A DNA stretch of 62,163 bases, filler included. It is 12 parts of 12 records of this genome, joined end to end, with 100 filler letters (N's around TTAATTAATTAA, not from the genome) between each part and the next. Parts side by side here need not be neighbours in the genome. Positions count along the whole stretch, not along the records: positions 6,735 to 15,089 come from SRR9670534_1340; 11 more parts are not named here. The stretch is one strand, 5' to 3'. Positions 5,945 through 56,275 of the stretch are shown piece by piece. The notes under the pieces are model-generated. The model had not been told where the DNA came from, made no database searches, and worked only from the letters and a program-made list of their open reading frames with translations. The number at the start of each line of letters is the position of its first letter. Positions within the stretch are counted from its first letter, which is position 1. Position numbers and translations under genes: made by a program.

Positions 5945-6634
5945 TATTGTGCCAATATTATGCCAATGGCTAGTGATTCAATGAGTTTAAGTGGACTTGA
6001 AGAGGCTAAATTGCTAAAGTCTGAAATGGCCATGCATAAAATAAGTGTAAGGCCAAGAAAATCAACGAAATCATTCAAAATATGTCGTAAACAGGTGATT
6101 TTTCATCTTTTTTTACCACGAATTTAATGTTCGTTTTAGCAGATGGAAAATGGTGCAAGCAAAGTCAAGGAAACCCGTGGCAATGAAAAGCCAACCATAA
6201 TAAAAATTTGTGCGAAGAATGCTAATGGAGTGGAAAGAAAGGCTAAATCCCATGAAACTGTTTGCTCTGGCTCTTTCCCAGCAGTTGATGTGAAGATGGG
6301 TAAAAAATCAATTCATAGCCAAAACAAAAGTGAACTCAATAATAAACATAATGAGGTGGTAAATTGGAAAGTTTTGGAAAAAGTTCCTTTACGATTAACA
6401 AGAGGATTATCAGTAGACGAATATGAAAAGTCGACAGACTTGGAAAGAACGTTCAAAAGAATTAGAAATAAAAGCTGTGCTACTGGGCTTGAAGGATTTC
6501 GTTGTAAGGATGATGCTAATTATTGTGGAATACGTTCACAAAAAGATGTCAGTAATCATACCGCCTCAAATGTGCGAAATCCAAGAACAACTGGCAACAA
6601 TATTTTCAATGTGGATTTAACTGATACAAGTATG
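5945..6634 (+). CDS. Partial gene with a DUF4592 (CRACD/KIAA1211)-like motif, truncated at the contig end
   Basis: Exon ~5945-6094 encodes LKSEMAMHKISVRPRK, resembling the LxxxAAxHKxxVxPK motif of DUF4592 proteins. A short intron follows, then open frame 6143-6634 running into the gap. Confidence 0.45.
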
Positions 6635-6734
6635 NNNNNNNNNNNNNNNNNNNNNNNNNNNNNNNNNNNNNNNNNNNNTTAATTAATTAANNNNNNNNNN
6701 NNNNNNNNNNNNNNNNNNNNNNNNNNNNNNNNNN
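6635..6734. other. Artificial contig spacer (first of 11)
   Basis: 44 N + TTAATTAATTAA (stops in all six frames) + 44 N. Identical copies start at 15090, 22127, 27823, 31130, 37015, 43730, 47867, 51473, 56176 and 58526. Confidence 0.98.
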
Positions 6735-7544
6735 TTGGATAGCCCTTTCATTGGGGATCATTTTAATGTATAACATTGTTATGTTAAGTTAATAAATAGA
6801 TGGTCAATATGGACCATTTTTCATAGGTAGGTTTTGTCCTCAACTGCAAACATGCAAACCTTGAGCCCATCAAAATTGATGCAGAAACTTTGGTAATATT
6901 CATGCATCCTGGAAAAAATGTCCAACTCACCTGAGCTCTTCTGCATAAAGCATACCCATTTTATTAACTAATTATTAGACACGAATTATTCATTGATTAC
7001 TTGAGAATTATTTATTAATTATTATCCTTTAATCAGCTCTTTTATTTTCAACATGCCAAAAATGAGTTTTGTTGTGTTGAACTATAAAAAGAGGAGAAAA
7101 AAGTTGATTTTGACCATTCTTGAGGTAAATACAGCTATGATTTTTAATAGTAATGTATCTCAAAGATATGATAAAGACTCTCTTATGTCTGTTTTAAACA
7201 GTAAAATCTTTTCTGAGAGTCAATTGATACTAAAGAATGCTGTACATATGGTTATTCTATTTTATGTACAAGCAACTTTTATATGTACCTGCTTTGTACA
7301 TAGGTACACAAATTTTTCAATGTAGTGTAGCTGTATACGTATGCTAGAAAATATGAGTGCTAACATGTATGCGCAGTACTTAAGTGTACTTTTGTCAAAA
7401 TATGTATTTTCTGCATTTTTGAGGGATTACTGTATAAGTATTAACGTGCATCCTATGGTATGCCATATTTTATCGTGCAGTATTGATGAAAGTTTGGTAG
7501 TGAATTATTTAGGTATGCAACGTAATTCAATATTCGATGTATGA

Positions 7545-10500
7545 ATGACATCACCTATGATACATGCTGAGTACTCCTATAATTTTGTTTTTTGTGATAC
7601 TGTAAAATCTATCATGAATGTTAATGTGAAATATGTAATTGAGAATTTGTGTACCTATGATGTAGGTATGTACCGTACATTTAGAGTCCAGTTTGTCAAT
7701 ACCAACAACTCTGTCATGACAACTGTGATCTACACTCAAGATGGATTACTAGCAAATGTATTCCACTATGTGAAGCATAATTTGAAACAAATTCTTGATG
7801 TGAAGAACATTGAAGATTCCATAACTCTAGATTCGAGATTAGATTTGTTAGTAACAAGGGTAAAGCCTATTTTCCTGATGTTTCTACAAAAATTGGGTGA
7901 TGTACAGGCATGTACAGAGCTACAAAATGAAATGAAGAGTGTAATCTGGAAGTACTACAGAGCTGGTGTCGCGGACACGACTACTGATGTTAAAGGGTTT
8001 ACAGATGGACAGACGATTTTTGATACCATAGATGTGAAAGAGGAAGATAGAAACTTTTTAAAAAGTTTGGATCATGCTGAATTACTGAAAATAAGAGCAG
8101 CGGCTGATACGAGAATTATTACGAAAATCGAGAAAAGTAGGGGTTTGGCCCTAGATGATGATGAAATTGAAAAATTAATGGAGTATGGCTACTACTACAT
8201 TATAAATCCGGATGTAACGTACACTCGTTATTTTAATAACAATGTACTCTTGTTTCAGAGATGGATTTTCCATGGTTTTGAAAATTATGAAGGATGGGAA
8301 TGGCCAACAAACTCCAGGTTCTGGATAAACTGGTCTGAATCTCAGAAGAACCTGTCTGAATTTTTGTATGTTAGTAAAAATCACGCTTTTTCGGTTATTT
8401 TCATAGGTAGACATCTGTTTATGTTTTTGTACCAACTTATTATTGCGTACAATAGGTACCAAAACTGGTTTACAATTACCTTTAGTCAAAATTCTTGCAT
8501 TTATGAGCAGAGTGCTGCCATTTCCAGTTTTGTTCTGTCTTTTTCTTGTATTGATAGTTGTGTAATAAAGATGAGTTTTCGATTTATGTACATTTGGTTA
8601 AGAGAAATTATTCATGAGACACCAGGCTTATCTTGGTATCCGATGGAATATAGAAATAATAGAATGTTGTTTATTGGCATGAAAGATAGCATTGACAAAC
8701 TGATGCAGCTCTCAGATAATGTTAATAAACAGGAAGAATACGAGATACAGAAGACTGAAATTATTTCTACTTTTGTAGCTGCTTTTAATGAACAATTAGG
8801 TATTAGTGGACAATGCTATATGATGAAAGATGCGGAAGAAATGGACAGACAATTCGAGAATGGTCTAGAGCAGAGTGGACTGGACGGACCGGAAATGCAG
8901 ATCTCAATTGAGAATGGCAACAAGAAAGCATATGTTGAAGCGAACATATGTGAGAATAAATTGAGGCTTTCTGTGGATATGGATAACCTTGAACCGAACA
9001 AGACTTTTAACCAAAAAGCAAGGTATGAGCTGTTAATTAATATGTATCCTTCAATAATGCCTATCTTTTATAAGATTGGTGGATGCTCAAAGCAATACGA
9101 TCATGGAGATTCAGCAAGAAATAACCATGAAGATTCCTATGGTTTGAACGAACTGAAAGAGTCAAATAGCTGGCGTCATAAACTAAAATTTTTCTGTTTT
9201 ACATATACTAAACCCATAGGGATACATTTATTCAACGGCTGTGATAATAGATGTTTATTGAAGGATAAAATAAAGAAAATGAAATTGTTTAACTATGAAA
9301 ACGCTGAAAGAGACTGTTTATCTTTAAGTAGTCTTGGTACATGCTTTGGTACAACTATTATAACAGATGTCGTACCTAAAAATGTGACGTCATGTGTCGT
9401 GAATTTTAAAAACTGGTCCTATATAGGTTTTAGGTGCAAAAATGGAGCATATAAACAGCTTTTCTCTTTAGAGAGATTTACTCCTCCCTCTAGCAGTCAA
9501 CAAAAGGTAATTTTCATTTGGTTTAGACTTTTTACTATCTCATATGACTCTTTTTCAGACATATTACCTTCATTTCCGAACATTTTTGTATTTCCAACGA
9601 TAAATCTGCATTTAAAGGTAAGTCATTCTTTATTTAATCAGTTTTTGAAAGTAGTTTTTAGAAATATGGATAATATCAATGATATTATAAATGAGGATGA
9701 GATCCTGAATGATGATGATGAGATTGATGCAGAAGAAAACATCGAAGCAGAAGAAGGTCAATTACAAGATGATCCTGATGAATTGGAAAATCAAGAAAAT
9801 GGTGCAGTCAATGAGAACCAAATTCCTCCTGGCTTAATGTTTCAACAAGGTTCTATTATTACTGCTGATTTGCTGATGCAATTTTTCATTGAAAATCAAG
9901 ACATCTTCCATGTTTTGATGGATGGTGCTGAGGTTCTGAATTCAGTGCAAATGTTGAATAATGCAAGAGGCCTACATTTATACAGTCTTCAAGATATTGT
10001 TGAGCTTTTTCAACGAGGTATGTGGTTTAACAATAAGACAATGGGTTATATTATAAATTGTATAGGTAACCTTTACGGTCGATTGAGACTTGAGCCAAGA
10101 AATGAAGTAAATATTCCTGCTTTGGTGGAACCAAACAATGATTCATTCTTTAAAGAAGTTGTTGAAGCTGCCTCTGCTGAGAAGCTTGTTGAAACGAAGA
10201 ACAGATTTTTAACACCATACATCAAATGTTTGGAAGATGGTACTATTGATCCGAAATACAAAGTAAAAGCTAGAAAATGGGATCAAGCTTTAGATGCCCA
10301 AGAAATGACGCCATTTGAAGCTTATTATAAAGATGAAACTGGCTGGAAGAGTGATGTTATGACCAGATTTAATGTTAAAGGTGCAGCCCAGTGTATTTTA
10401 ATTTCAGATGTGTGGTTTCACACACGAAAAACCACCACTTACATGGATAGTGATGAAATCAAAATGATGGCAATTGCAAGAGATTCCATGTGTTTCATGG

Positions 10501-10667
10501 CTATTGAGAAACTCTTTTTGAGTTTAACTGTTGAACAGTCTACTGTCAGATCAATTATCATTGTTGCTCCTGCGTCCATGAAGAGAGAGCCTGAAGAGAA
10601 CAGAGATGCTATAATCCAACGCCTTACCAGAGCTCTTGTGATGTTTTTCGTCAGCATATGCGTTTGA
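7545..10667 (+). CDS. Large ORF1-position protein of the retroelement (1040 aa, mostly unrecognised)
   Basis: A 1040-codon open frame in AT-rich DNA, co-oriented with and directly upstream of APE-RT. It contains an acidic tract from ~9666 and the start of an alpha/beta domain near the C-terminus. Confidence 0.7.
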   Translation: MTSPMIHAEYSYNFVFCDTVKSIMNVNVKYVIENLCTYDVGMYRTFRVQFVNTNNSVMTTVIYTQDGLLANVFHYVKHNLKQILDVKNIEDSITLDSRLDLLVTRVKPIFLMFLQKLGDVQACTELQNEMKSVIWKYYRAGVADTTTDVKGFTDGQTIFDTIDVKEEDRNFLKSLDHAELLKIRAAADTRIITKIEKSRGLALDDDEIEKLMEYGYYYIINPDVTYTRYFNNNVLLFQRWIFHGFENYEGWEWPTNSRFWINWSESQKNLSEFLYVSKNHAFSVIFIGRHLFMFLYQLIIAYNRYQNWFTITFSQNSCIYEQSAAISSFVLSFSCIDSCVIKMSFRFMYIWLREIIHETPGLSWYPMEYRNNRMLFIGMKDSIDKLMQLSDNVNKQEEYEIQKTEIISTFVAAFNEQLGISGQCYMMKDAEEMDRQFENGLEQSGLDGPEMQISIENGNKKAYVEANICENKLRLSVDMDNLEPNKTFNQKARYELLINMYPSIMPIFYKIGGCSKQYDHGDSARNNHEDSYGLNELKESNSWRHKLKFFCFTYTKPIGIHLFNGCDNRCLLKDKIKKMKLFNYENAERDCLSLSSLGTCFGTTIITDVVPKNVTSCVVNFKNWSYIGFRCKNGAYKQLFSLERFTPPSSSQQKVIFIWFRLFTISYDSFSDILPSFPNIFVFPTINLHLKVSHSLFNQFLKVVFRNMDNINDIINEDEILNDDDEIDAEENIEAEEGQLQDDPDELENQENGAVNENQIPPGLMFQQGSIITADLLMQFFIENQDIFHVLMDGAEVLNSVQMLNNARGLHLYSLQDIVELFQRGMWFNNKTMGYIINCIGNLYGRLRLEPRNEVNIPALVEPNNDSFFKEVVEAASAEKLVETKNRFLTPYIKCLEDGTIDPKYKVKARKWDQALDAQEMTPFEAYYKDETGWKSDVMTRFNVKGAAQCILISDVWFHTRKTTTYMDSDEIKMMAIARDSMCFMAIEKLFLSLTVEQSTVRSIIIVAPASMKREPEENRDAIIQRLTRALVMFFVSICV

Positions 10668-11320
10668 CGACATCTATTTGTGTTATATTGAATTGGGAAG
10701 TCACTATAGATGGCACCTTGAAGACAAAAATTGTTGAAGCTAATGAAATCTGGTTGGAAATAGCTAGATCGCCCTTCTTGAAAGATAAAATCCGTTGCAT
10801 ACGTTTAGATGCTGAAAAAATGGGCATTATTAGAGAAAGAGATTGGAACAAGACTGTCTTCTATGATGACAGAATGGTTAAGTTCCGATTTTATTGGAAC
10901 TGCCCAAACAATGGAGCCATGTTCAGAGACTTAACTGATTTGACCTGGCGTACTATAGCGAATTTGGCAGGCATTGCCAAAGATGGGCAGATGGATAGAT
11001 TTATTTATGGAAAAAGAGATCGTAAGTTTCTCGATAAAATACGAAATATACCTACTATATTATGTGCAAAATTTAGGTCGTGCACCCAAGAGAAGAAAGG
11101 GTCCTGCTGGGTTTTGAAAAACCTCCGAAACCTGTTTTCAACCAGATGTTTCATTTTTCTGTTACAATGTGGTTTTTGTAGTACAATAGGTTTGCTTAAT
11201 AGTTGTTTCTTTCTGTTCTTGAAATTTTATTGTACCTGTCTTAGTGGTAGTTTCAATGTAATGGTATTTGTGTTAAATAAAGTTGCAAGTAAGGATTACA
11301 TGAAAACTTGTCCAGCATAA
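10658..11320 (+). CDS. Probable frameshifted continuation of ORF1 (SGNH-like C-terminal half)
   Basis: Overlaps the end of the 1040-aa ORF, and its frame is open upstream (SCDVFRQHMRL). It is in the same frame as APE-RT. Confidence 0.55.
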   Translation: MRLTTSICVILNWEVTIDGTLKTKIVEANEIWLEIARSPFLKDKIRCIRLDAEKMGIIRERDWNKTVFYDDRMVKFRFYWNCPNNGAMFRDLTDLTWRTIANLAGIAKDGQMDRFIYGKRDRKFLDKIRNIPTILCAKFRSCTQEKKGSCWVLKNLRNLFSTRCFIFLLQCGFCSTIGLLNSCFFLFLKFYCTCLSGSFNVMVFVLNKVASKDYMKTCPA

Positions 11321-11323
11321 AAC

Positions 11324-14300
11324 ATGTCAAAAATAAGTATGACCATTCCTAGGAAAATATGGGATAAAGCTTCAAAACGTACATCAGTTATGGCTAATAC
11401 AAGCTTAAGTAAAAAAGATGGTGAAGATATAATAGCTAAGGTTAAGGTTAGAGATAATTGTAGAAAAATAATTAAATTAAATTTTTTCTATGTAAATATC
11501 AATAGCCTTAAGAATTGCATAGAAAAGTTTTTTGTGCCATGTCTAAACTATAATCACGTGATTAGTATAGCAGAGACACATTGGAATGACTTATTAGTAA
11601 ATGAGTCAAAATCACACTGGCATAGTTTTCTAAATCGTGAAGATGGGTATGGGGATACAATGTTCACTTCCAGAAAGAAACTAGGTATGCATAAATTAAT
11701 TTTGAATACTAATAATGAACTTTTGCAAATGAACACCACAGAAATAGATCGTCTTGTAGTAACAACCATTTACGCCAAAAGTGAATTGCATGAATCTGAT
11801 GTCCTACTTGCTTTTTAGGAACATTTGCACTTGGTAAGTGATATAAATAAGGTACATATTATAGTAGGGGATTTAAACGATTGTCACAAATTCCCAAAAA
11901 GACTCAGAAGCTCCCTAGATCTTTTAGATTCATTAGGCTATATAGATTACACTTTTGACAAAACAAGAGATAAGTCTCTGGGAATAGATTGGCTGTTCAT
12001 CAATAAAATTGATGATATAGTCATTGAAAATCTAGAATGTCTTCCAAGCATGTATAGTGACCATTATAGCTACAGTTTTCAATTTCAGATTACGGGAGAT
12101 TCAATCAGTAAAAAGAGTGATTGTTTACTTTGGAACAAAACAAAGATAAAAGATCTTGATGATGAATGGAAATATAACTACTATAAAAAAGTTCGCTTTC
12201 TAGCTGAGGAAAATAATACCTTAGATTGGGAGTCTTTTGAGATCAACTCTGATGTTGATTTCAACTACAATGTACTGAAGTGGGCTGTGAACAAATCTGT
12301 GTCAGATCTAGTTCAGGTTAAATGTGTTGATGATAATCAAATGGGATGGTGTCTTTAATTTGCCAAAGATGATTTGGTACGAGAATACAGAGTACACCAA
12401 AAACTATTACGTAAAAGACTTGGTGCAGCAACAAGAATTGATAATATTGAACTTCAACAAAATTTATGTAAAGATTTACAGGTATGTGCTGTTAAATTGT
12501 GGCAAAGAAAGAATTTTCTTAAATTCAATTATTTGTCACAGCTACGGAAAAATGAACCATTCAAATTCTATCATGTTGTTACTGATTTAGCATTATATAG
12601 TAAAAAGTCTAAACAAGTTGTCTCGGAATTACGACATGGGGATAAGAAAATCAAAAATTCGAATGAAATTGCCACTCTTTTCAATATTCATTTTTGTGAA
12701 ATAGTTCCCAAATTGCTAGAAAAACATTCTATGGTACAAGGTGAAATAGGTGATAGTATCTTGAAATGCCCTTTTACAGTTGAAAGACTTCCAGATATCA
12801 AGTGGTGTAATATCCTAAATAAATTTGCTGTTCGAAAAGCAGTGCCATCTGAGGAAATTCTGCGTAGGATATGGAAAAATTTTCTATCATGTAATAGTGC
12901 GTTTTTTACTAGGTTTTATGAGAAAATATTTATAAATTGTCAAATTTCTTGGGAATGGTCACAATTTGAAATATGTCCCCTTTTTAAAAAGAGAAATGCC
13001 ATGGATCCTAATAACTATCGACCGATAGCTATTATCGATCCATTGGCAATTATTTTTGAAGAAATTTTTCTCAATGAACTAAACTATCATAATGCACTTT
13101 GGGTGCACCCCAATCAATTTGCATATAGAAGCGGAGTGGGGTGTGTAGATGCCCTACTGCAGGTTCTATTGCAAATCTCTATGTGCAAGAAACAAAACAG
13201 AGTTCTGGGAATGGTTTTTTTGGATGCCATGAAGGCTTTTGATACGATAAATCCAGAAAAACTATTCGATATATTACAGATGCACAATGTTCCTAATTAT
13301 TTATTAGTACTACTAGGAAATTACCTAGGCAAAAGGCAAGCTAGGGTTAAAATAAACGATGTTAAATCTGAATATAGAGAATTGACATGTATGGCCCAAC
13401 AAGGTTCTAAGTTGGGTCCAAAATTCTTCACCATTTGTGTGAATGGTGTATGTGGTCTCTCGAAAAGTTGCAATGATTGCAAAACAAAATTTGTGGCATG
13501 TGACTGTGACAAATTGTCCCAATATTTGGATGACTGTATGGTGTTTAGTTCTGGGTCAACTATTGATCAGGTTATAGGAAAACTAGAAATTTTCATGGAA
13601 CAAGTTTGTAATGAATTGCGTAATCTGAATATAATTTTAAACATGAAAAAGACCGAATTTTTAATAAAGCTTCCAAAAGACCCTGTTCCAGCTCAAATAT
13701 GTCGTATTAAGATTGACAATGAATGGATTTTGAATAAGTCGAAAATTCGCTATCTTGGAGGATATTTTAGTTCTGATGAAATTAAGGTGGTTATACCAGA
13801 GGTAAATAAAAAACTTTTTAAGGCTATGACATGTATTAATAACAACAAGGAATTCCTTGTGCTGAAAGATATTAGTATATTATTCAAATCATATATTCTT
13901 TCAGTTTTTGGTAATGCTTGCCTAATGTGGACCCGCGCAGACATAAGAGAACTGACCATATTATTTAATCAGAAAATGAAGCAAACTCTCTGCCTTCTCC
14001 CCTTCATCTCTAATTTGGCCTGCCGCTGTCTATTGGAAGTGGAGAGCTTGGAAAAATGGCTGGTAAGGATAAAAGCTCGTTGGCTCCTGAAAGGAATTTT
14101 TTGGATGCATGACACAGCATTCTTTAATACCCTAAGAGAGATCCTTTCAACAAAAAGAACATGGGAAATTCCAATGATTATTGATGATAAAAGTCATCCA
14201 ATAGAAATGGCCAGAAAGTTAGCAAACAAAATTTTACACAGAATAGATGAATTTTCTGGATGGAGTGATCTTCTAGCATGTAATGACATGGACAAAGTAA

Positions 14301-14662
14301 CTACTGTTGGATCACAATTTTTGGATGATCTGAAAAGTTTAAAATCTGAAGAACTTCAGAATGATCTCTCTAAATTTAAAGCAGAAACTGGTGTTGATTT
14401 TAAATCGGCTAGATGGATATTCATGAATGTACCTAAATCAGCACGTCCATTTTTTTGGGACATACACAAAGGTGCCAAGCTGAATTGGCAAAAATTTGTT
14501 CAATCTTCTAATATAAAATTCAGAATCTGGAAAAGATCCTGGAAGAGAACGAAAGATTTTGACTGTATGAATGAAGTTGATGATGCTTCAGCAGTTGAAC
14601 ATGAAGACCTGATGAACAACAGAATGGATGATAGTCAACCAGAAGACAATGATGGATTTTAA
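11324..14662 (+). pseudogene. ORF2: apurinic-like endonuclease + reverse transcriptase with two in-frame stops (TAG 11816-11818, TAA 12356-12358)
   Basis: ORFs 11324, 11825 and 12374 share one frame. APE motifs: YVNINSL, IAETHW, IVGDLN, IDWLF, SDH. RT motifs: NYRPIAI, QFAYR, FLDAMKAFD, QGSKLGP, YLDD, KTEFL, IRYLG. Confidence 0.92.
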
Positions 14663-15015
14663 ACAATTGTCTGATCTGGCTTTAGTTAATTTTTATTTGT
14701 ATTATTTTTTACGTATTTACTACAGAGGCAGATATGTAATTATCGCAAATAAGACGGCTTTGTCACATTAGCAACATTACTGCTTTTCCATGAGTAATAT
14801 CCTTTTAGGATAGCGTCTCTGAATAATATTTGATATTATTAAAATATCATGTAAACTTCCAGTCACTTTGACTGTGTCCTAAAGACTTTACTTTTAGATA
14901 TTGTCTTTTATTCTTATGGATTATATGATACTGATGCGAATTATATTCGAGTTTATTTGTTCTTTTTGTTGATTTTTGTATTACTGCCATTTGTACGTAT
15001 TTTATATTAGTATAG

Positions 15016-15061
15016 TACACAGCTACAGGTGTATAATAAAGAGTAGTAGTAGTAGTAGTAG
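15016..15061 (+). repeat. LINE 3' terminus: short stem-loop, AATAAA and (TAG)7 tail
   Basis: TACAC (15016-20) pairs with GTGTA (15029-33); AATAAA at 15035-40; GAGTAGTAGTAGTAGTAGTAG at 15041-61. Confidence 0.7.
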
Positions 15062-15189
15062 GTTATAAAGTCACATAACATGGAAACAANNNNNNNNNNN
15101 NNNNNNNNNNNNNNNNNNNNNNNNNNNNNNNNNTTAATTAATTAANNNNNNNNNNNNNNNNNNNNNNNNNNNNNNNNNNNNNNNNNNNN

Positions 15190-19293: not shown

Positions 19294-20946
19294 CTAAAAA
19301 CTCGTTATTTGATGTTCTGTTATCCCGCTTTCAGTACTATTAACAATCGTTGCAGTTTCCATATTAATTAAGTCATCATCCTCGTTAGGAGCCTTTGGAT
19401 TACATGCTTCTCTTAATACCTTGACCCATTTAGCACAACGTTCTACTGATGGTGTCTTAAACTTGTATATATTTCCCCTGACAGAATCAGTCAATTGAAA
19501 AGTAACAGGCGAAGAATCTAGACCACAACAGTCCATGTTAACAATGCTATGAATAATTTTTGAATATCGACTTTTGTAATGACTTCGAACTTCATCTCGG
19601 CTGCGGAAAGGTCGCGGATGATAAAACAACAGCTGAGAACCACAAAGTGCTAACCAATAGCTAGTCCACGTGGACATGATAACGCTTTTTCCATTCTTTA
19701 AAACTGTCTTTCTTTGCACAGCACCCTCGAACACAAATCTTTGGGTAATATCACCAGGATTATGATGAAAACTGCTTTCAACAGTAGAAGGACTACTTAC
19801 AGAAGCTCCAGCGACTGTCGGTGTAGAATTGGTTAAATTTTTTTCAGCAACCTTTGCTGTGGTACCATCGATATTCTCCAGAGGTGAGTCATCGAGCAAA
19901 TTTTGTTGGTCTCGACGCCGCTGTTCCTCTCTGAACTGGGCTGGAATCTTTTTACGATCCTTTTCTTTTCTTGGTCCTACTGTACTGGCTTTATGCTCGT
20001 TATTATTATACTGTATTGGTTTTCCGTTTGTTGTTATGTGATTGACGGTACCATCACTATTAACTTTTCGATGATGTGGAGTTTCTTTTGATTTGGCAGC
20101 ATGCTCACCCGGTTCAAGGGCATACGACATTTTGTCAAATTCATTGAGAGTAAATTGGGATAGCTGCTCAATGTACTTATGTGCGTTAAAATAGTCCTGA
20201 AGGTACTTTACTGGCAAAATATCGTATATTGAATGCTGAAATGCAGAAACCACTCGCAAAATATTGTTCATTTTGGTTTGGCGTTCACGGATTTCCAAGC
20301 CAGCCCTGTAAGGATGGACAGTATCAACGTGAATTAGTTTGGTCATAATTATCCCGATGTAAGGTATGCATGGCAACTTGACAGTTTCGCATAAATTGTT
20401 AAATTCCTTTGCTTCGTAATCTGTACCAAAGTATGTATTTAGTTTCTTATATAAATTATAAGTTTCGCGTTGTTTTTCCGCTAGCTTATTCCAGGTTTTC
20501 GAAAGTCTATAAATGGCTTGATTTGTTAGAGCACTCATTATTGCTTTCGCTGAATGAAAATTGTTGTACTGACTGTGCAACTTATGCGTAACTTTAATCC
20601 AATGGCCCATGATTTCAACCCTTTTCTTTAGATTTTGATTATTCAGAATTTCGTGCATAACAAGGAAGCAAACTTGGTTAAAGCGATCAAGCATTTTCAT
20701 TACATTTTTGGAATTTCTACACTTTTCCTTGCTATTAAAATTAACTGGGTCGAGCTCCATTGGTTCAATACGCTTAAACGTTTCGAAATCTAGAGCCGTA
20801 ATCTGACCAGCAATTATTTCTGGATTAACTGCACAAATTTCAAAAATTCTTGGATCGTAACTCTTTCTCAACTCATCATTTTCGGAAAAAGGATATGCAA
20901 AGCCATTTGAATCACTCGATAATCGAACATCGACGGCTGCAGTCAT
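19294..20946 (-). CDS. RALGPS: Ral guanine nucleotide exchange factor RalGPS (RasGEF + PH), intronless
   Basis: CDC25 domain without REM (IAGQITALD, NNFHSAKAIMSAL, IYRLSKTW, PCIPYIG), HRK..S.G and LLDDS motifs, and a C-terminal PH domain (RKTVLKNGK...WTSYW...GNIYKF...KW). The first in-frame ATG is at 20946. Confidence 0.92.
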   Translation of the reverse strand: MTAAVDVRLSSDSNGFAYPFSENDELRKSYDPRIFEICAVNPEIIAGQITALDFETFKRIEPMELDPVNFNSKEKCRNSKNVMKMLDRFNQVCFLVMHEILNNQNLKKRVEIMGHWIKVTHKLHSQYNNFHSAKAIMSALTNQAIYRLSKTWNKLAEKQRETYNLYKKLNTYFGTDYEAKEFNNLCETVKLPCIPYIGIIMTKLIHVDTVHPYRAGLEIRERQTKMNNILRVVSAFQHSIYDILPVKYLQDYFNAHKYIEQLSQFTLNEFDKMSYALEPGEHAAKSKETPHHRKVNSDGTVNHITTNGKPIQYNNNEHKASTVGPRKEKDRKKIPAQFREEQRRRDQQNLLDDSPLENIDGTTAKVAEKNLTNSTPTVAGASVSSPSTVESSFHHNPGDITQRFVFEGAVQRKTVLKNGKSVIMSTWTSYWLALCGSQLLFYHPRPFRSRDEVRSHYKSRYSKIIHSIVNMDCCGLDSSPVTFQLTDSVRGNIYKFKTPSVERCAKWVKVLREACNPKAPNEDDDLINMETATIVNSTESGITEHQITSF

Positions 20947-21421
20947 GTTTTCATTAATAATAAGAAAAAGTGCATGCACACCTTCAGTGTTGATGCAATT
21001 ACTTAATAATAATAAGTAAAACGCCCAATAATATAACTGTTGTAAATGCTTGCCATTAATTACATATCTAAAATTAATATGTCAATATCTAAAAAATTAC
21101 AAAAAATATCTACATGCCTAGTTAGGTATCTAAAACATACCTACTGGTACCTACCTTCCTAGGCTACCTAGGAATCCTAGCTGTAGGGCACGCTGTATGT
21201 ACAGGTTATGTATGTTTCAGATACCCAGCGTGATGCTGTACGTATGTACTAGATTCGTCGTAAACAACGAATGAAGTTACATATGGTAGGTATACATTGC
21301 AAACAATAAGCAGAGCACACTAATTGGTACATACACTGTAATACAGTATAATTAATTACATACATTGTATTATACATTATGTATATACCGTAGTAAACAT
21401 TTATCGTAAACCCCGTTACTC

Positions 21422-21467: not shown

Positions 21468-22510
21468 ACGTAAACAACAATGTTCGAACACATGAAAGCT
21501 TTGGCATGTGGTAGGTAAACTACCCGGTGCATACCTATGTATGGTACATTGCGTACGTAATACATATGTACAAATCTTATACCTACATATGTACTAAATC
21601 ACATACGATGTAGTAACATACCGCACATGTATAGGTAAATATGTATAATAAATTATCATTAATAATGGAACGTGTAACACGTTACATGTTGGATTACCCA
21701 GATAGGTACGAGTGAATGAATTTCGAATCGACGAATTACGGTAGGTAGGTACATTCTGACGCATATAGTCTATAGAACACCTAGAAAAATAATGAAACGC
21801 AGTCCTACACAGACTGCGTAGCCTACAGTATAGGCCCTACATTCTACTGTAATGGAAAATAGGTACCTAACCTTAACATTTTAATTTAGGTAATTTAATT
21901 TAATTTTATTGTATAATTCAGTATTGCAGCGAACATTGGGTGCACAATACTTTCTACGTACATATTATGTATACCTATGTAGTACATAATATTTAGGGAT
22001 AGACATAACAGGTACGCAAGTATAATACATGCTTGAAGTATTGGTACAATTATTGTACATACTACAATAGGTATGCAGATATAGTAGACATAATATGTAG
22101 GTACAGTGAGACACATAAGTTGTGTCNNNNNNNNNNNNNNNNNNNNNNNNNNNNNNNNNNNNNNNNNNNNTTAATTAATTAANNNNNNNNNNNNNNNNNN
22201 NNNNNNNNNNNNNNNNNNNNNNNNNNTTGGACATTTTTGCCGTAGTACGTGAATAACATGCTATATATAAATTATACATAATTTACTATTGTTACATAGA
22301 CTACTACTAGTTCAAATTATGATTAGCGCATTAATTATTTTTAAAGTATAACTATTAGTATTTTCCTTTCTTATAGTAGTTATATGAGTATTTAATTAAA
22401 TATTAACAGTAGGCTAATCATAAATTTGTATTAAAATTTAATAATTACACCATGAAATTGAAACTAGTAATTTATAGTAATTTATATTAAAGTTATTAAA
22501 TAATTACACC

Positions 22511-28735: not shown

Positions 28736-30004
28736 CTATAACTCAGTCTCAATAATACAATTAACATCAAAATTATTGTCATTATTATTTACATTGTAGT
28801 TTCTTGTGGAATCTTGCCTCATTAAGGACGTGTTTTTAAGACTCTGCAACCCAAACCGCTTTTTCGTCTTTCGTTGTCTATGCTTTGCAAATACTTCCCT
28901 ATATTTTTCAGTAAGCATAACATATAAAATAGGATTTAAACAAAAACTGAGGTAAGCTAAGAATTGCGAAGTTATAGTTAATGTTGCATTGGTCATCGAA
29001 GATTCCATGGCAGAAGTGATGTTGTATCTACTCCATATTGCATAAGTATGGTATGGAAACCAACAAATGCAAAACATAGCTAAAAGGGATATGATCATAA
29101 TTATGGCTTTATTCTTCCGACTGCTATTTCTTCGTAAGTTCTTAATCTTCTTAAGCACTACCAAATAGAGGATAATGATCAGAATCAAAGGAATTGCGTA
29201 TGTCACGCAAATTGAGCATAGAAAGTATAGCCTTTCTTTAAAGAGATCTTTGTAAAACTTTTCAGAAACCATTTCAACTTCTGCAATCAGATTATCGCAA
29301 ATTAATTCGGCAGCCATGGCTAAACTCCAATTGGGTGAATTAGACATTACTGAGGTATAGTTTTGGAATGAAAGATTTTCAAAAATGTCTTCCGTGATTT
29401 GACTGCAATTATAAAGCGTCAAAAATTGATTGGATTCTATCAATGTTCTTTTCTGAATATATAAATTAAAGATGTTTTGATCACCACAAAATTCAGCAAA
29501 AACATCGTATTTTCGTATGGTTTCTATGTTCAAGCAGAAAGCGATAATCCATATTATAAACAGTATAGCAACTGCAATTTTATTAGATCTGAATTTTCTT
29601 GAAGCTAGTGGAAATTTCGTCACATAGAATCTGTCAATAGTCAGAACAGTCAAATTTAGCAATATAACATGAGCTGATATCGATTTGAATGCCATTGAAC
29701 CCTTACACATAATGCGACCTAAAGACCATTTTTGCGCTAAATATTGATAGGCATTAGCTGGAGGACAACATATCAAAAATAAAAAGTCTGTAATGCATAA
29801 ATTCAACAAGAAAATGTCAGTTACATCTCTTGATTTTATCTTTAAGGTGATAATCCAAAAAGACACCACATTAATCGAAATGCCAAATATACTTTCGAGA
29901 ATGAATAGGGCAGACCCAATGGCATATGTTGTTCTAAGCCACGTTGGTATTAATTCCACCATTTCACTTGAATTTAAAAAGGTTAAGTTTGAGCTGTTTG
30001 CCAT
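28736..30004 (-). CDS. Class A neuropeptide GPCR, galanin/allatostatin-A/kisspeptin receptor-like, intronless
   Basis: Seven TM segments with TDIFLLNLCITD, WSLGRIMCK, IDRF..TKFPLASR, FCICWFPYH and CLNPILY. Confidence 0.88.
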   Translation of the reverse strand: MANSSNLTFLNSSEMVELIPTWLRTTYAIGSALFILESIFGISINVVSFWIITLKIKSRDVTDIFLLNLCITDFLFLICCPPANAYQYLAQKWSLGRIMCKGSMAFKSISAHVILLNLTVLTIDRFYVTKFPLASRKFRSNKIAVAILFIIWIIAFCLNIETIRKYDVFAEFCGDQNIFNLYIQKRTLIESNQFLTLYNCSQITEDIFENLSFQNYTSVMSNSPNWSLAMAAELICDNLIAEVEMVSEKFYKDLFKERLYFLCSICVTYAIPLILIIILYLVVLKKIKNLRRNSSRKNKAIIMIISLLAMFCICWFPYHTYAIWSRYNITSAMESSMTNATLTITSQFLAYLSFCLNPILYVMLTEKYREVFAKHRQRKTKKRFGLQSLKNTSLMRQDSTRNYNVNNNDNNFDVNCIIETEL

Positions 30005-32109
30005 GATAAATAAGTTTTAGTATTTTACATTCCAGATGTCTTAAATCTCAAAAAGGCCAAAATTGTTTATGCGAGTTGATGGTTATTATATGTCTTTATA
30101 AATATATATTGATACATCACTGAATAACAAAATGTAACGCACACATGTGTTAATTAAGTGGCCATTATGCCAATTTAATAAATTTCACTGCTCATCTACT
30201 AACCCTAATAATAATATACCAACATCGTTATCTAGAATAATTACGATAAATCTAGAATAAAGAAGATCAAAAGATCATAGACGATTGTTACACAAGGCTA
30301 AAGGAGGACTAGGTATATTCAAAAAATATTATTCTTACCACATGTATCTATGAAATAGCGTGATAATCATGGGCGGAATTTCCGCCGCGGAAACATTTAT
30401 CTTACTTAATAACTTACTTGCTGCAACAGCGTCACTACCTAGCATGCTAAAACGCTATCATAAATTGCTATATAGCAATATTTCTGCACAGTCAAAAACT
30501 GTGAAAGAATACTATAAGACGATTTTCATTAAAATAACTAACATTTATTGTTGTTAATAATATATAGTAATAATGGTAGCAATAAAAACAAAGCTCCGTG
30601 CTTAGTAATCTCAATTAACTTCTTATTTCGAGCAGTTATTCCACGCATTAAGACCATGGTCAGATTTGCAATAATTGTTCAAATTAATATTGGCTGATAC
30701 AGATTGCTGAAAATGATTAAGATTACGACATGGTATTGTTTTTATTATTACTATATAGTATACTAATAACGTGATTACTTGAAGTAATTTACTTCTGTTA
30801 GTAATAACTTGGTCCAAATACTGTATATGTAGTATTCATATAATATTATTTATATTTATCATAAATATATAAAAACACCTATAATAAAAATAACAATGAT
30901 GTCGATCATAATAATATGTATTTATGTACCTATATTTAGAGCACAAAATCACAATTTGTTTCTAGAGTATTGCTCATTAATAGCTCCGCCCCCAAGAACT
31001 AACTCCTCCATAAAAATGTGAAAAAGTGCACGTGCATATCCATGTGCATTTTATCATGTGCACCTGATAGAGCAATCTTTGTTCTTTCAAATGAATAATT
31101 ATATATATGGGCAATTCCACGAAAAACGTNNNNNNNNNNNNNNNNNNNNNNNNNNNNNNNNNNNNNNNNNNNNTTAATTAATTAANNNNNNNNNNNNNNN
31201 NNNNNNNNNNNNNNNNNNNNNNNNNNNNNTTATTTGGAGTAAAGGTAACTCACTCATGCAGCATGGGTCATGCTATTAGCTTTTATTAATTTTATTTATA
31301 CATATGTAATAAGCATATTATACCATAACTTAATGAATATTTACTATTTGTTATGAAATTATTGTAATAATGAATAATGCATAAAATTATTGTAATAATA
31401 TTGTATTTATGAATAGCCTTTTGGTGATGGCTTGCCGCAACAGGGTGAACGTCTCAAAAATGCAATTCTTCTCGCAAAGGAAGTTGATTTTCCGTCAAAA
31501 CCTACCTGTACTGCAGAGGCTAAGGTATTAATCACTTTAATCTAGCTAGTTCATATTATAAACGTAAACATGGAGGTCTCTATTGTGCTTTGGTCAAGGC
31601 GATACCCAAACGTTTAGGTATCGCCTTGGCTTTGGTTCAGCTAATGGTTCATATCTGAGTGACATCTTTTGGTGAACATAAAAACTTACTTTTGTATTCG
31701 AATAGGATTTTATAAAGAAATGTTTGACATACACCGTACAAGAAAGACCTTCTGTATTGGAAATAGCTGCAGATGATTATCTGAAGGTACCCACTCGGAA
31801 GAAGACAGAAAAGCCTTCTGTTACTGCCTCTCTCAACGATAGTGCTGAGTTGTAAACTTATATTAGTTAGATGATTTTTTTTTAATTGAAGGAGGAGTCT
31901 TTTTAGGTAAGTTTTTATTGCATGATGCGCTAGCTCTTTCTTATTGCTAATACAATAATAGTATATGAAGATATTTCTTATCGTTATAGAGGTATAAATA
32001 TATTAATAGAAATATATTCAGGTTTTTAATAAGACGATTATTATTGTATTAATAAGTAATCATTAATAATTATAAATATAGTTATAATGTATACACTTTT
32101 GAACAATTG

Positions 32110-35100
32110 CTACAATGGTACATCGCCTTCTGTTGGTATGTACTTTAAGTCATAATCGTTAACATTGTTATTATCCGTGCTGAGGGTTGTAGCTGCACTT
32201 AGGAATGATCCTTGCGTTTGCGAACGAGAAACTCTTACAGGTTCCATAATTAATCGAGTCTTTTCTCTCCCTTCTAAATTTGATAAATACATACATGGCT
32301 TATTTTACTATAACATTTTCCTAATATTTCACATTACCTCCGCTATGATCCGTTCCTGAAGTTTCTGCTGTGCAGTCTACTGAATCTTTTGTTGCTGTAC
32401 TTGTTGAAGTTTGGCTGGGTTGTTGTTGTGCTGCTGATCCAGGAGATAGGGTCATTCCTGGAAGTTTTGGGGCAGGATTAGTCGGTGATGGCTTCTTGGC
32501 CATCATGCTTTGCCTGACATTTCTTTCAGGATGCAAGATTATTATGTATACCTTTGGTGCAAAGAGGCATGCCAAAGCCACAGTTGCTGATAATGATACA
32601 CTGAAACATATGGTTGCCAGCCTAATTTCAATGTTATTTGCTGTGCTGAAGTAAATTGGTACAAAAGCCAACCAAATGATACATGTTGTATACATGGTAA
32701 AGCTAATCTGTTTTGTTTCATTAAAAGCTTCGGGCATTTTTCTTGTTTTTATTGCGTAAATAGTACACAGAATAATCAGAAAGATTGGATAAATAAATCC
32801 AATAATGTAACCTATGGATACAGAAGTTACACAAACTAATTGATTATCCTCTCTTGTAGGATAATGGTATGTAGCTTTAGGGATTTTTACAAGCAACCAG
32901 CCTCCACCAACCACAATTTGACCTAAAACTAGTAGGGAACATATCACCAGTTGCGATTTTGGACTGATAAATCTGGGCCGTTTGGTACTCTTTTTTCCAG
33001 CGGCAAATATTCTTGAAATTCTGTTTGTTTTTACTAAGAGGGCTGAATAGCAAAGTGTGAAACAAAATCCCATGCCAAACCTTTGAACCCCACAAACTAT
33101 TTTGTTAGGTTTCATAATGAAGATAAATGTCATCGAGTAGCAAATGGTAACACCAGCCAAAAGTATGAAGGACAATTCTTTGCTTGCTGCCTTTACAATT
33201 GGTGTATTTATATACTTTATCATTACTACAATTATAAATATTGTTGCAATTATTCCTATTGTGGCCAAAGTCATTGCTGCAATTGCGATTGCTGAAGTCC
33301 ACTTTAGATATTTTAGAGGAATTGGATCACAACCAGTTAAAGCTGCATTTGGTATAGTACCACGGGGACAGTCTTCGCATTTAGTGGCCAAATATTGCCA
33401 TCTAGTACAGTCATTGCAAACCCAACAACAGCCTGTACCATCTTGCATAACCTGTTCTTGATTTTTTAAACATGGGAAACTGCATACTGATTTAGGATGA
33501 GCTTTTTCGTTCATTGTAAACTGAATGTTTTCCATTGGAAGCTAATTTGATAGTATTATTAATGATCTTATTGAACAATAAGAAGACTACTGCAAGACAT
33601 ACATAGACTTTTCCACTTTTGTAAGTACCAACAGTCTTCCAAGCAAATTCACCTTCAGCAACTTGCTGGTAATTTAATATGTTATATCTAGCTGGCCCAT
33701 CTCCATTGTTTTCAAATTCAAAATAGTCACCACTCAAATCTAAAAATTTGCAACAGTGACATCTAACTGCTCTTTGTAAATGTTGTCATATGACTATATA
33801 GTGGACTGATACGATATGACACCTATAAATTTTACAGCCCTGAGATAATTGTTTAGCGTTTTTCCATCAATGAAGCCATTTTCATTGTCATGCAATGCAG
33901 GACAATGAGCAAACTTGCCATGACAAGCATCATAGAAAAAGTCTTTGATTGCGTATGCTATTGCCAAAACTGCGTTACTAACGAACTGAAGTTGTGACTC
34001 CCATTCCAACTGATAATTGGATTCATTAACAACTACGCTACAAGGTGTAGTATATTCCATTGTCCATGGAGTTGGATCTTGCAACGGGTCATCACAATGC
34101 CAGTGTCCCTCCCAGTATTCCCTAAACCATGGATTTCGTAGATTTGTATCGGGACGTAAACCTCTAAAATATTCTTCAAAGCCTTTGACAGGATTGGCCA
34201 TTGGTTGTAGCGTTATAGCTCCTTCAACCTGAAGTTCTTGATTGTTGTCTGTAACTTGGGCTCTAGCGCCCCATCCATCGGATCCCAGCCAGGCAAAATG
34301 TCCAGTTAGGTTATTTCTTTTAATTGCAGCCATCATTTCTCCAACTTCCTGCTCGGATGCAAATATTACAACCCCTTAATTATTAAAAAAGTTTGATGCA
34401 TAATAGTAATAACTATTATTAATAATAATAAGTTGTCAAAGTGTATACCCCTAGCTTTTTTAAAATTCTTTAAGTCTTGTGCAATCAAGTCAAAATCTGC
34501 TGCCTTTGCCACCCCAGAATCCTTTTTGAATTTATGTCTTGCAGCGATGCAAATCTTGTTTAAACTTGCTAACTCTTCTATTTTGTTCATGCCCTTTAAT
34601 AATAATTGATAATTGTATTAGTGTACATAATTATCTTTTAGATTATTAACGATGCTAATCAGCATGAAATTTTATTTCATCTAAAGCTGACAACATCTGA
34701 CTGAATTTTTTACGCTCATTTTAAAGGAGTCCTTTATTATTGTACCTATGTCTAAGGCACAATGACTTGTTAAAAATTTAAGGCTTATTTTTTGAATTGT
34801 TTACGAACTAAATAATGATTCACTAAGTACTAATGACTCACTTGTTCTCCATAATTGGATTCTTCGTACAATACTGAGATATACGTCCAATTGAACAATT
34901 TAACAATTTCAATCATTGCCCGTGCTTGATGCTCATCAGATGGTACTGTCCTTGAGAAGTACTCAAACCTAACTTTATTGGTCAATTCTGGGCTTGTTGA
35001 GAAGAAACTGACCTAAATAGGAATTGGAGCTAGAACAACAAAAAATAATAAAGCAGTTGCATTATTGCTTGACGTCCACTTTGTTGATTTTTCATAAGCT

Positions 35101-35988
35101 ATGTATGAATACAACACAATACGAAATATGTTTTTATTTATTATTTTTTATCAAAGATTCCATACTACAAAAAAGAGCATAAAGTGAAACATATATTGAT
35201 AATATAAATTATTAATTCTAAAATAAATTACTAATACTAACATAGTTATTATTAATAACTATGTACTATTTAATATAATCATGTATTTATGTATATATAG
35301 TTATAAATATTCAATATGTACATAATTATGTACTGTTTAATATAAAGTATTTTATTATTATTAATAATAACAAATATTTCTATACCTGAGGTATTTTAAA
35401 CAATTTTAATAAATTTGCCACTTGAATTGATGTTACACTTGATCCAGCACCAACAACACCAGAAATGATCTTGTAGTTCATCTCAGGTTCACTGCCATCA
35501 GCACATGTATATTGTGCTTCATCTCTTTCACTGTTTAAATTGTTGATACTACCCTTTATAAAATCAACTGATTGCTCTAACCCGTAAGTATCTGTGTCAC
35601 AGTCATCCAATATATGTGTTCCAAAAGTAATTCCAGGAATAAGTCCAGTTCCATTTAATGCATTAATATAGTCCAAGGTATATAGCATACTTTCCAATGC
35701 TTGTATCCCACCTTGCTCCATAATTTTTCCACATAAAATTGCTTCATCCCTTTCATGAACCATCATCAATCCCCCAATGATAAAATTTCCATCCAAATTT
35801 GCAACATTGTATGCAGGCCATTTGGTGCCAAATTGAAACTGAGTGGATGGAATTATACCTTCTGTTGTTAGTAATTCTACCACTGTTAGATTACTGTCAC
35901 TTTTACAAGGATTAATAAAGAAGTTTAATAATAATAAATGAAAAATAACAACACAAAGGACCTTGAAGGGTATTAACTTCATAATCAT
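32110..35988 (-). CDS. mtt: Class C GPCR, mGluR-related mXR/mangetout type (7 coding exons)
   Basis: Venus flytrap (GGIQALESMLYTLD, DDCDTDTYGLE, SSVTSIQVANLLKLFKIPQVSFFSTSPEL), Cys-rich domain (CCWVC) and 7TM (LVKTNRISRIF, PEAFNETKQISFTMYTTCIIWLAF). The motifs match my recollection of Drosophila mtt better than canonical mGluRs. Confidence 0.85.
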
Positions 35989-37295
35989 CAAGATATTGGG
36001 TTATTAGTTGTTCTCTATAGGGAGAGAAGGAATTTAGTAGTCTGGAGTAATTGGCAAATAGGATTTATAAACTCTTGGGAAGGAAGGACTGATGCTGACT
36101 AGTTTAAGTGCGATATTTTTCGTCGCTGGACAGTGAAGCCGCAAATAAGACCAATTAATTAATGACTGCTGCACCACTAAGCATAAAATAGTTCCCTATA
36201 ATGTAATTACTCTGGTACTGGGCGGCATAATGACTGCATGCTAGAAATTACTGCCTTTTTTATCCATAACTCGTCAACAAATCAAATCTTTTATGCAAAA
36301 ATGAAGAAGCAGAACGATTATTAAATTTACATTTATTAGAGACACATAGGAAGAGTTGTAATATATACAGTACTGTACATTACTGTTATTATTAATAATG
36401 GCCCATATGTACTATTTTATTATTATTAATTATGATGATAATGATAATTGCAATATACATATGTTATATGTGTATTATTTTGACACGCTGCCTTTGAAAT
36501 CGATATATTATAACAGAAGTTATAGCCAGCATATTTTTACGTCAATGACTTTGCCATATCTATACATAATAAATGCATAGTACCACCGTAGTTTTCTTAT
36601 TAAGAAAGTTTAGTAAATGGTAAAGGAAAATTTGCTTTATTAATAATAAATATTTGTCCATGTAACAAGCTCTAATTGGGAGAAGCGTTCTCTAGTTGTT
36701 ACTGGTAATAATAACACAGTAACTATATAGTAGATTTTACGTGACGAAATATTTTAATAAAAACATGCTATGTTTAATAATAACATAGTCTTACGTAATA
36801 TATTATTATTAACTAGTTATATATTATGTAAGAGTTTTCACCGAATATTTGTAATAAGTTAGTAGTTATAATATACAAATAAGTTATTAGGTATAAATAT
36901 ATAACAATCCGCACTAATATAGATAAATCTTCCAAACTCAAAGAATTACTTCTGTCGTACTAGCACTTATAACAACAAACAAGCTTTCTTCATTATTATT
37001 ATTATTATTATTATNNNNNNNNNNNNNNNNNNNNNNNNNNNNNNNNNNNNNNNNNNNNTTAATTAATTAANNNNNNNNNNNNNNNNNNNNNNNNNNNNNN
37101 NNNNNNNNNNNNNNCACACACAAAATGTTTACTTTTCAAAAATTTGAATGTATGCTGATGACGTACAGATGAATATTCATAGCAATATTGAATGTTTAAA
37201 GCAAATTGCTAGAAATACAAACATTTGAGACTCAAATTTTGAGTAGCTATGTATTTCATGGAGATGAGATCTCTTCTTACTCCATGATATATAGA

Positions 37296-44832: not shown

Positions 44833-45468
44833 CTATAAGGCCTTATTAATATTAGGATCAGCAACCATAATCTTCTCCAAATGCTGAAGCCATTTACTGA
44901 CAAGATTTTCTTTCCCATCCTTAGAAATCGTATCTGCTCCATAAATAACATAAGTTTCTAGAGGCTCAATTCCCAGGTAAACTTTGCATATTTTGTTGTA
45001 GGGTGCCAACAAGCTAGGCATTGTTCCAAATATCTCATTTGCTTGGTATCTCTCCTCATTACCACCTGTTGTTACACTGAAGATAATCTTTTTGTTGGAG
45101 TTTTTAAAAAAGGGTTCTCCAGTTTTGTCAAAATGAAGGAAGAATATCTGAAATATTCTGTCAATCCAGCCCTTTAGTATTGCAGGTGGTCCCATGAAAA
45201 AGATTGGGGTTTGTATAATGATAAGGTCAGACTGCTTGATTTTTTCAATTTCTGCTTCAACATCTTGCCTTCCTTTGTTAATCAAAGATAAATCCCAGTC
45301 TTCTTGATTAAACACAGGGTCAAACGCCTGTTGGAATAGGTTGGATTCTAATACCTCTACATTCTTGGTATCTTTCAGGAAATTCTTCGTCTTCTCGAAC
45401 AGCAATCCGTTTAGCGATAGTTCAGGATTGTAGTGTGATAAAACAAGTAGAACTTTAGAAATGACCAT
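44833..45468 (-). CDS. NAD(P)H:quinone oxidoreductase (flavodoxin-like fold 2, NQO/MdaB/KefF family), intronless
   Basis: KVLLVLSH.NP..SLN, DLIIIQTPIFFMGPPAILKGWIDRIF and SVTTGG motifs; 211 aa from the ATG at 45468. Confidence 0.9.
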   Translation of the reverse strand: MVISKVLLVLSHYNPELSLNGLLFEKTKNFLKDTKNVEVLESNLFQQAFDPVFNQEDWDLSLINKGRQDVEAEIEKIKQSDLIIIQTPIFFMGPPAILKGWIDRIFQIFFLHFDKTGEPFFKNSNKKIIFSVTTGGNEERYQANEIFGTMPSLLAPYNKICKVYLGIEPLETYVIYGADTISKDGKENLVSKWLQHLEKIMVADPNINKAL

Positions 45469-55932: not shown

Positions 55933-56275
55933 CTATACAAATTTATATTATACTATAGTGAATTAACTTAAGTGTTGATAATTACTTTAATAAAATTATC
56001 AATACTTAATTATCATAATAATTTGATTATATTAAGTCATTCTAAACCAATAAAAATTTAATAATTAATATGATAAACATATAAATAACCTACTAATTTA
56101 AAATTAATAATTCAAGTTATTAATTTATTAAGTTAATTATTCAAGTTATTATTAATAATAATTATAATTAATAATNNNNNNNNNNNNNNNNNNNNNNNNN
56201 NNNNNNNNNNNNNNNNNNNTTAATTAATTAANNNNNNNNNNNNNNNNNNNNNNNNNNNNNNNNNNNNNNNNNNNN

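Follow-up and report, generated by a model that had tools for sequence, protein, structure and literature searches.

Locus and Reading Frames

The DNA analysed here (the window) is a 62,163-nt pseudomolecule of 12 contigs (2.2–8.4 kb) and 11 linkers of the form N44-TTAATTAATTAA-N44, recognised from 22 runs of 44 N (e.g., 6635–6734, 15090–15189 and 22127–22226). The element under study is a retrotransposon without long terminal repeats (non-LTR), or long interspersed nuclear element (LINE), with an apurinic/apyrimidinic-type endonuclease (APE). It is at least 8 kb long and occupies a single 8,355-bp contig, 6735–15089. As N/TTAATTAATTAA linkers lie between the contigs, the neighbouring contigs carry no genomic context for the element. 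On the forward strand, under the standard genetic code, the region 7005–14662 consists of seven stop-to-stop open reading frames (ORFs) in two frames:

6735–7052 (+): 5′ leader or flank; the contig begins at 6735 after a linker, and the density of frame 0 stops is normal
7005–7325, 7326–7544 and 7545–10667 (+): stop-to-stop ORFs of frame 0, the last of 1040 aa with ATG 7545 as its first codon
10595–11320, 11321–11818, 11819–12358 and 12359–14662 (+): stop-to-stop ORFs of frame 2
7323 (TAG), 7542 (TGA) and 10665 (TGA): stops of frame 0
10592 (TGA), 11318 (TAA), 11816 (TAG), 12356 (TAA) and 14660 (TAA): stops of frame 2

Frames 0 and 2 are both open over 10595–10667, and one frame change inside those 73 nt joins them. 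The ORFs, five in-frame stops and the frame change had been reported in a first-pass annotation of the same DNA, and all of the coordinates were correct. The coding blocks are designated as follows:

7053–7544 (+): ORF-A, about 163 codons, basic (isoelectric point, pI, 9.1), with KKRRKK near the N-terminus; broken by TAG 7323, ends with TGA 7542
7323–7325 (+): in-frame TAG in ORF-A, read as a lesion, without an ATG within the next 2 codons
7545–10667 (+): ORF-B, 1040 codons, unbroken, acidic (pI 5.2), orphan
10658–11320 (+): ORF-C, 220 codons, pI 9.5, K+R 16%, ends with TAA 11318
11324–14662 (+): ORF2, about 1,112 codons, APE followed by reverse transcriptase (RT); cut by TAG 11816 and TAA 12356, ends with TAA 14660

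Over 7005–14659, four in-frame stops were observed, against about 206 expected from base composition. The same comparison gave 2 stops versus 14.9 expected for 7005–7544 (with 18 and 17 in the remaining frames), 0 versus 82.3 for 7545–10664, 0 versus 18.0 for 10595–11317 and 2 versus 91.4 for 11321–14659. The openness of 7005–14659 is thus far beyond chance. Upstream of 7005, the stop density of frame 0 is ordinary (5 stops per 90 codons), so coding starts at about 7005–7053; after 14660, frame 2 stops are dense. The coding region is approximately 7053–14662, and every block in it is coding. The claim of the first-pass annotation that some 1,400 real coding codons lie ahead of the endonuclease is therefore borne out by the stop counts.

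In its 7.6 kb, the region 7053–14662 contains three to five nonsense codons and no more than one frame change. By a rough estimate from indel-to-substitution ratios, indels may be fewer than neutral decay would give. An alternative genetic code with TAA and TAG as sense codons was considered and rejected, since neither triplet occurs among the 1,040 codons of ORF-B and the long host ORFs of other contigs match Pfam under the standard code.

ORF2 and the 3′ End

The features of ORF2 and of the sequence downstream are the following:

11462–12115 (+): APE domain, very divergent, located with hhalign
11816–11818 (+): in-frame TAG inside the APE domain, read as a lesion; no ATG after it
12356–12358 (+): in-frame TAA between APE and RT, read as a lesion; no ATG at the stop
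12986–13759 (+): RT domain, Pfam RVT_1 (E 2e-26 to 4e-26, profile positions 2–202 of 205)
14663–15041 (+): 3′ untranslated region (UTR), with dense frame 2 stops after 14660
15042–15061 (+): (AGT) × 6.7 microsatellite, likely the 3′ tail (Tandem Repeats Finder, 100% matches), followed by 28 nt and the contig end

A Pfam scan of 11321–14659, translated with X at the stops, gave RVT_1 at E 4e-26 and Exo_endo_phos at E 0.11. The closest PDB matches of ORF2 (pI 8.7) are R2 retrotransposon proteins (2.4e-10), followed by 8c8j, “RNA-directed DNA polymerase” (2.8e-8). Exo_endo_phos was matched at E 0.04–0.11, under the family cut-off. The APE domain was aligned with hhalign by comparing 11321–12355 with a profile of LINE N-termini, built from 15 ORF2s of metagenome loci. 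The match is weak (E 9.6e-5, probability 58.5%, 212 columns), and the motifs N, E, Y, GD.N, D and SDH are all in register and in order. TAG 11816 falls between aligned APE motifs and is therefore taken as a lesion. The RVT_1 match and the APE alignment agree with the first-pass description of the locus as a non-LTR retroelement with APE and RT.

LTRs are absent, the longest direct repeat in the contig being 27 nt. The (AGT)6.7 array is located about 380 nt past the ORF2 stop. An Rfam search of the contig returned nothing at E ≤ 0.1.

Relatives and Phylogenetic Position of ORF2

Among 5.8 billion proteins, 32 matched the RT ORF at E ≤ 1e-3; the best match (9.5e-20) has 29% identity over 29% of the query. 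A metagenome scan with the RT alignment yielded at least 273 relatives among at least 535 pattern matches, and 80 loci with identities of 22–34% were kept. By a quick method, a tree of 42 rows was constructed. It contains ORF2 of the element, 12 selected database proteins and the 29 of these 80 loci whose ORF reaches 800 aa or more. The end branch of ORF2 is 3.92 substitutions per column, compared with a median of 1.29, and its best identity within this set is 20% over 800 columns. No supported group of the tree includes ORF2, which stands outside all of the 41 sequences it was compared with. Relatives with an esterase and relatives with an RNase H are placed in different groups, and ORF2 belongs to neither.

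The element had been attributed to the CR1/L2 group. Such a membership does not follow from a tree in which the ORF2 end branch is 3.92, ORF2 joins no supported group and named clade references are not included. By these comparisons, the element is a very divergent LINE.

Upstream Coding Blocks

About 1,420 codons (about 4.3 kb) upstream of ORF2 have no detectable relatives. Pfam gave no match to the upstream blocks at E ≤ 0.1 to 1, and no helicase (SF1 included) or other family was found in any of them at E ≤ 0.1; PHROGs and NCBIfam also gave no match, and the best E in PDB was 0.34–0.36, which was regarded as chance. The word-indexed search of 5.8 billion proteins returned nothing for the upstream ORFs, and an exhaustive HMMER search of 1.84 billion representative proteins returned no match to ORF-B at E ≤ 0.001. 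No relative of ORF-B residues 1–690 and 690–1040 was found in ESM Atlas, nor any relative of the upstream ORFs in scans of metagenome, viral and prokaryote genome contigs. When the 80 metagenome LINE loci were searched with tblastn, ORF-A, ORF-B, ORF-C and APE gave 0 matches at E ≤ 0.01, and the RT query gave 83.

Searches aimed at ORF1 proteins gave a similar picture. CCHC and PHD patterns were not found in the upstream blocks by pattern search, and comparison with a profile built from three ORF1s of the esterase type gave an hhalign probability of 0.2–0.3%. ORF1 types I–IV (RRM + CCHC, coiled coil + RRM + CTD, PHD and esterase) were not matched, the coiled coil not having been properly searched. 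A match to a known ORF1 class over the whole length, named beforehand as the finding that would speak against an undescribed family, was sought and none was found. The first-pass annotation had described most of the upstream region as unlike any recognised family; the negative database searches extend this to the roughly 530 codons that it seemed to recognise.

The blocks differ in charge: ORF-A and ORF-C are basic and ORF-B is acidic, as listed above. By size and charge, ORF-C is the best candidate for the equivalent of an RNA-binding ORF1, and ORF-B is a candidate accessory (cargo) protein. The C-terminal ~60 aa of ORF-C are hydrophobic and rich in Cys and Phe, and ORF-B has T-rich hydrophobic stretches at about 8325–8560 and 9465–9600. 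AlphaFold2 without an alignment gave a mean predicted local distance difference test score of 33.5 for ORF-B and 31.3 for ORF-C, and the models are unusable. No internal repeats or domain duplication were found among the four proteins at E ≤ 1.

The T-rich stretches at 8325–8560, 9465–9600 and 11135–11250 contain 41–51% T, are open in frame and have hydrophobic translations rich in Phe, Leu, Cys and Ser, some segments being long enough for a membrane span. At codon position 1, their share of purines is the same as in bulk, which resembles non-coding DNA. The joint chance of their staying stop-free is about 2e-5 (arithmetic from base compositions). Retained short introns in the T-rich stretches were considered (GT..AG pairs 9507–9558 and 9618–9661) and rejected by eye: excision of the first meets a stop, and excision of one alone shifts the frame.

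Junctions between the Coding Blocks

In three of the six interruptions of the coding region, the stop has an ATG in the downstream frame no more than 7 nt away:

7542–7547 (+): stop-start junction ORF-A/ORF-B, with ATG 7545 directly after TGA 7542 (sequence context)
10658–10667 (+): overlap junction ORF-B/ORF-C, with the frame 2 ATG 10658 seven nt ahead of the frame 0 TGA 10665
11318–11326 (+): junction ORF-C/ORF2, TAA-AAC-ATG, with TAA 11318 and ATG 11324

The remaining stops, 7323, 11816 and 12356, have no such ATG. In Monte Carlo simulations, the probability that at least two of five random sites have a Met inside the next two codons (Met constitutes 3.4% of codons) was P = 0.038, and jointly with a Met within three codons of the sixth site it was P = 0.004; this statistic was picked after the data had been seen. 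ATG 11324 precedes the APE N motif by 57 aa; with ATG 10658 as the start, the lead would be 279 aa. In the relatives, the corresponding distance from Met is 1–118 aa, or 3–113 aa from the first Met (12 of 15 have a Met ahead of the motif). Since the 57-aa lead is inside the range of the relatives, the ATGs are placed at the stops and the blocks differ in charge, several cistrons with three lesions are favoured over one frame.

The first-pass annotation had proposed a single frame of about 2,500 codons. In such a polyprotein, the upstream region would be fused to APE-RT, and all five stops and the frame change would be due to decay. This reading gains from the arrangement of all blocks in two frames parted by single stops only, and single-ORF APE-type LINEs are known from the elements treated in PMC3894237. 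However, at three of the six interruptions the sequence has the look of a natural stop-start junction, and the ATG one codon past TAA 11318 provides the normal 57-aa APE lead, as in the relatives, while fusion puts more than 1,400 aa ahead of the domain. A regex search for a 2A-like NPGP motif found none in either frame, though 2A accompanies many single-ORF elements, according to the same source (PMC3894237). Furthermore, six lesions are needed, yet frameshifts are absent from the 1,040 codons of ORF-B and the ~1,112 codons of ORF2. The single frame is the least likely of the architectures considered, and we regard it as very improbable.

The favoured architecture, which we hold with about even confidence, comprises three or four coupled cistrons (four, A, B, C and ORF2, being preferred) and three true lesions. 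In it, the three junctions listed above are probably natural. The RNA of the element would carry ORF-A, ORF-B, ORF-C and then ORF2 from ATG 11324 on one transcript, and the stop-start overlaps may let ribosomes terminate and reinitiate between cistrons, by analogy with SART1. ORF-C would act as ORF1p and ORF-B as an accessory (cargo) protein. The true lesions of the copy would be TAG 7323, TAG 11816 and TAA 12356, and the ~380-nt 3′ UTR with the (AGT)n tail would close the element, in a manner fitting target-primed reverse transcription. A lightly decayed, recently inactivated copy is the best explanation of the locus, the reading as a whole being evenly balanced in our judgement.

Besides the late choice of the junction statistic, several observations weigh against this architecture. 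The element is known from a single copy. In a check for a target-site duplication, only 7-mers were found in common between the 28-nt 3′ flank and 6735–7600; no duplication was found, the 5′ end is thus undefined, and it may lie beyond the contig. No unusual RNA structure was predicted in the 151 nt from 10640 (z = 0.09 versus shuffles). A tight ORF1–ORF2 junction occurs in only 1 of 14 relatives (L021), the spacing in the rest being −98 to +618 nt. Codon-position purine bias is absent in ORF-A and in the T-rich stretches of ORF-B and ORF-C, and the protein products of these parts may be poorly constrained. Codon usage correlates at r = 0.76 between ORF-B and ORF2, and at 0.85–0.86 between each of them and pooled host ORFs; as all ORFs of the genome are alike in codon usage, it does not separate the element from host genes.

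The rarity of tight junctions among the relatives also favours another architecture, a bicistronic LINE with a giant ORF1 of about 1,420 codons (7053–11320), which requires two nonsense changes and one frame change in 10595–10667, with ORF2 starting from 11324. The frame change may stem from mutation, from an error in sequencing or from programmed −1 shifting. Both frames look coding right up to the overlap, the shift from frame 0 to frame 2 has the −1 direction, and the two undoubted nonsense lesions in ORF2 make upstream lesions plausible. On the other hand, the ATG after TGA 7542 and the ATG 7 nt before TGA 10665 would both have to be coincidences (P ~0.03–0.1 each), a stimulatory RNA fold is missing downstream of the site (z = 0.09), and acidic ORF-B with basic ORF-C suits two separate proteins. 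This architecture is considered unlikely. A programmed −1 frameshift signal was rejected as a candidate feature, given the lack of structure beyond shuffles after 10640.

Probable Unity of the Upstream Blocks and the LINE

The blocks are on the same strand and abut or overlap: the ORF-B stop overlaps the ORF-C ATG, and the ORF-C stop is 3 nt from the ORF2 ATG. No spacer, poly(A) or UTR remnant was found between them. Independent eukaryotic genes are not packed in this way, so blocks without space between them point to one element. A-richness and G>C skew run on across 6001–14000, and the level of decay is light and similar in the upstream blocks and ORF2.

These features bear on the possibility of a chimera, in which ORF-A and ORF-B (or A, B and C) are unrelated sequence (for example, from some other element or from processed host mRNA) that became attached to a 5′-truncated LINE. 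Possible routes are template switching, nested insertion or misassembly of the 8-kb contig, and the assembly is indeed highly fragmented. The overlap 10595–10667, the site of the frame change, could hold the join; ORF-B is intronless, acidic and unlike any ORF1, and its codon usage matches host ORFs at least as well as that of ORF2. Against a chimera speak the lack of any poly(A) or UTR remnant at the boundaries, the start codon at the stop in both junctions, the similar decay on both sides and the unbroken base composition. In addition, a host protein of 1,040 aa without a match at E ≤ 0.001 in 1.84 billion representatives would be unusual. A chimeric origin is judged decidedly unlikely.

Taken as one element with coupled cistrons, the locus would represent an undescribed LINE lineage. 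Its RNA would be polycistronic and encode a small basic leader ORF, an acidic orphan cargo of 1,040 aa whose hydrophobic segments may associate with membranes, a basic ORF1-like protein of 220 aa and APE-RT. All of them would be expressed by serial termination–reinitiation at the stop-start overlaps. This full description is offered as a tentative proposal.

Comparison with Known Elements

The CR1/L2-type LINEs (Jockey superfamily) were represented by metagenome loci L011, L016 and L031 and by the description given in the available sections of PMC4120745. The element resembles them in having APE followed by RT in an ORF2 of ~1,000–1,100 aa, with another ORF ahead of ORF2 on that strand, and in lacking LTRs. 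It also shares a 3′ tail of short repeats, which is typical of CR1/L2-type LINEs. Unlike CR1/L2-type ORF1s, the upstream blocks have no esterase, PHD, RRM or CCHC, and ORF2 reaches no more than 20% identity with the comparison sequences over 800 columns and lies outside every supported group. The upstream ORFs are 160–491 aa long in 14 relatives (four being cut by the contig end), in contrast with 1,040 + 220 (+163) in the element.

A Pfam search of the upstream ORFs of 10 relatives revealed a GDSL esterase in 3, Baculo_FP_2nd in 1, only weak coiled-coil-like matches in 2 and nothing in 4. This mixture fits the five LINE ORF1 types of the Khazina and Weichenrieder scheme, including the unclassified type V, as summarised in PMC4120745. 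ORF1 of L016 (780–2252) joins a 2OG-Fe(II) oxygenase (AlkB-like, PF13532, 5e-18) to a GDSL esterase, a combination not among the types described in the available sections of PMC4120745.

With “Type V” ORF1, as presented in the same summary (PMC4120745), the element shares an upstream ORF without an identifiable domain, but this type is a catch-all category and not a family. A literature search, which was not exhaustive, turned up no LINE with an ORF1 longer than 1,000 aa. “Type V” ORF1s are typically several hundred aa in size. To our knowledge, the upstream load of the element would be the largest non-enzymatic coding load of an APE-type LINE.

In SART1, a telomere-specific LINE of the silkworm, a UAAUG stop-start links ORF1 and ORF2 (PMC3894237, citing Kojima et al. 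2005). As in SART1, outlined there, neighbouring cistrons of the element have no spacer between them, and the start codon of one lies at the stop codon of the other. The element differs in that it would have three junctions, with a spacing of 0, −7 and +3 nt, and in that no RNA structure was detected downstream; its coupling mechanism is presumed.

TRAS and Jockey-family insect LINEs carry a viral SF1 RNA helicase, according to the consulted parts of PMC6338049 and PMC5563155. They share with the element a large accessory coding module dispensable for the basic mechanism. In those LINEs, the accessory part can be recognised as a helicase and is fused into a LINE protein, whereas in the element it is a separate 1,040-aa orphan without a Pfam match.

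Genomic Context

The overall GC content of the window is about 31%. Its other contigs encode ordinary animal genes, as identified with Pfam under the standard code. The matches include RasGEF + PH, a rhodopsin-type (class A) G-protein-coupled receptor (GPCR), a class-C GPCR (ANF_receptor, NCD3G and 7tm_3), RPA-like OB folds, an NQO-like flavodoxin and an MFS transporter. The host ORFs are located as follows:

19294–21078 (−): host ORF
28736–30013 (−): host ORF
32321–36000 (−): host ORF
37341–38249 (+): host ORF
44833–46968 (−): host ORF
48092–49165 (+): ORF of 358 aa without a Pfam match
56220–57257 (−): ORF of 345 aa without a Pfam match

Together, the host genes point to an animal genome that is AT-rich (~31% GC) and has long exons. 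Neither blastn at the DNA level nor tblastn at the protein level found another copy of any element part in the window.

Significance

ORF1 proteins are the least understood part of LINEs. The known types consist of a few hundred residues, and their modules are of the RRM, zinc-knuckle, PHD, coiled-coil or esterase kind, according to the summary in PMC4120745. Accessory modules in LINEs are already known from the viral helicases of TRAS and Jockey elements, as described in the consulted part of PMC6338049, and the novelty here would be an exceptionally large orphan upstream coding load. If the locus is a chimera or a one-off copy, it is a curiosity only. Read as one element, its 4.3 kb of extra open coding sequence shows that LINEs are capable of both carrying large accessory genes and maintaining them. 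If the polycistronic reading is true, it would mean a new expression strategy for APE-type LINEs, and translation of several cistrons from an animal retroelement could be put to the test with it.

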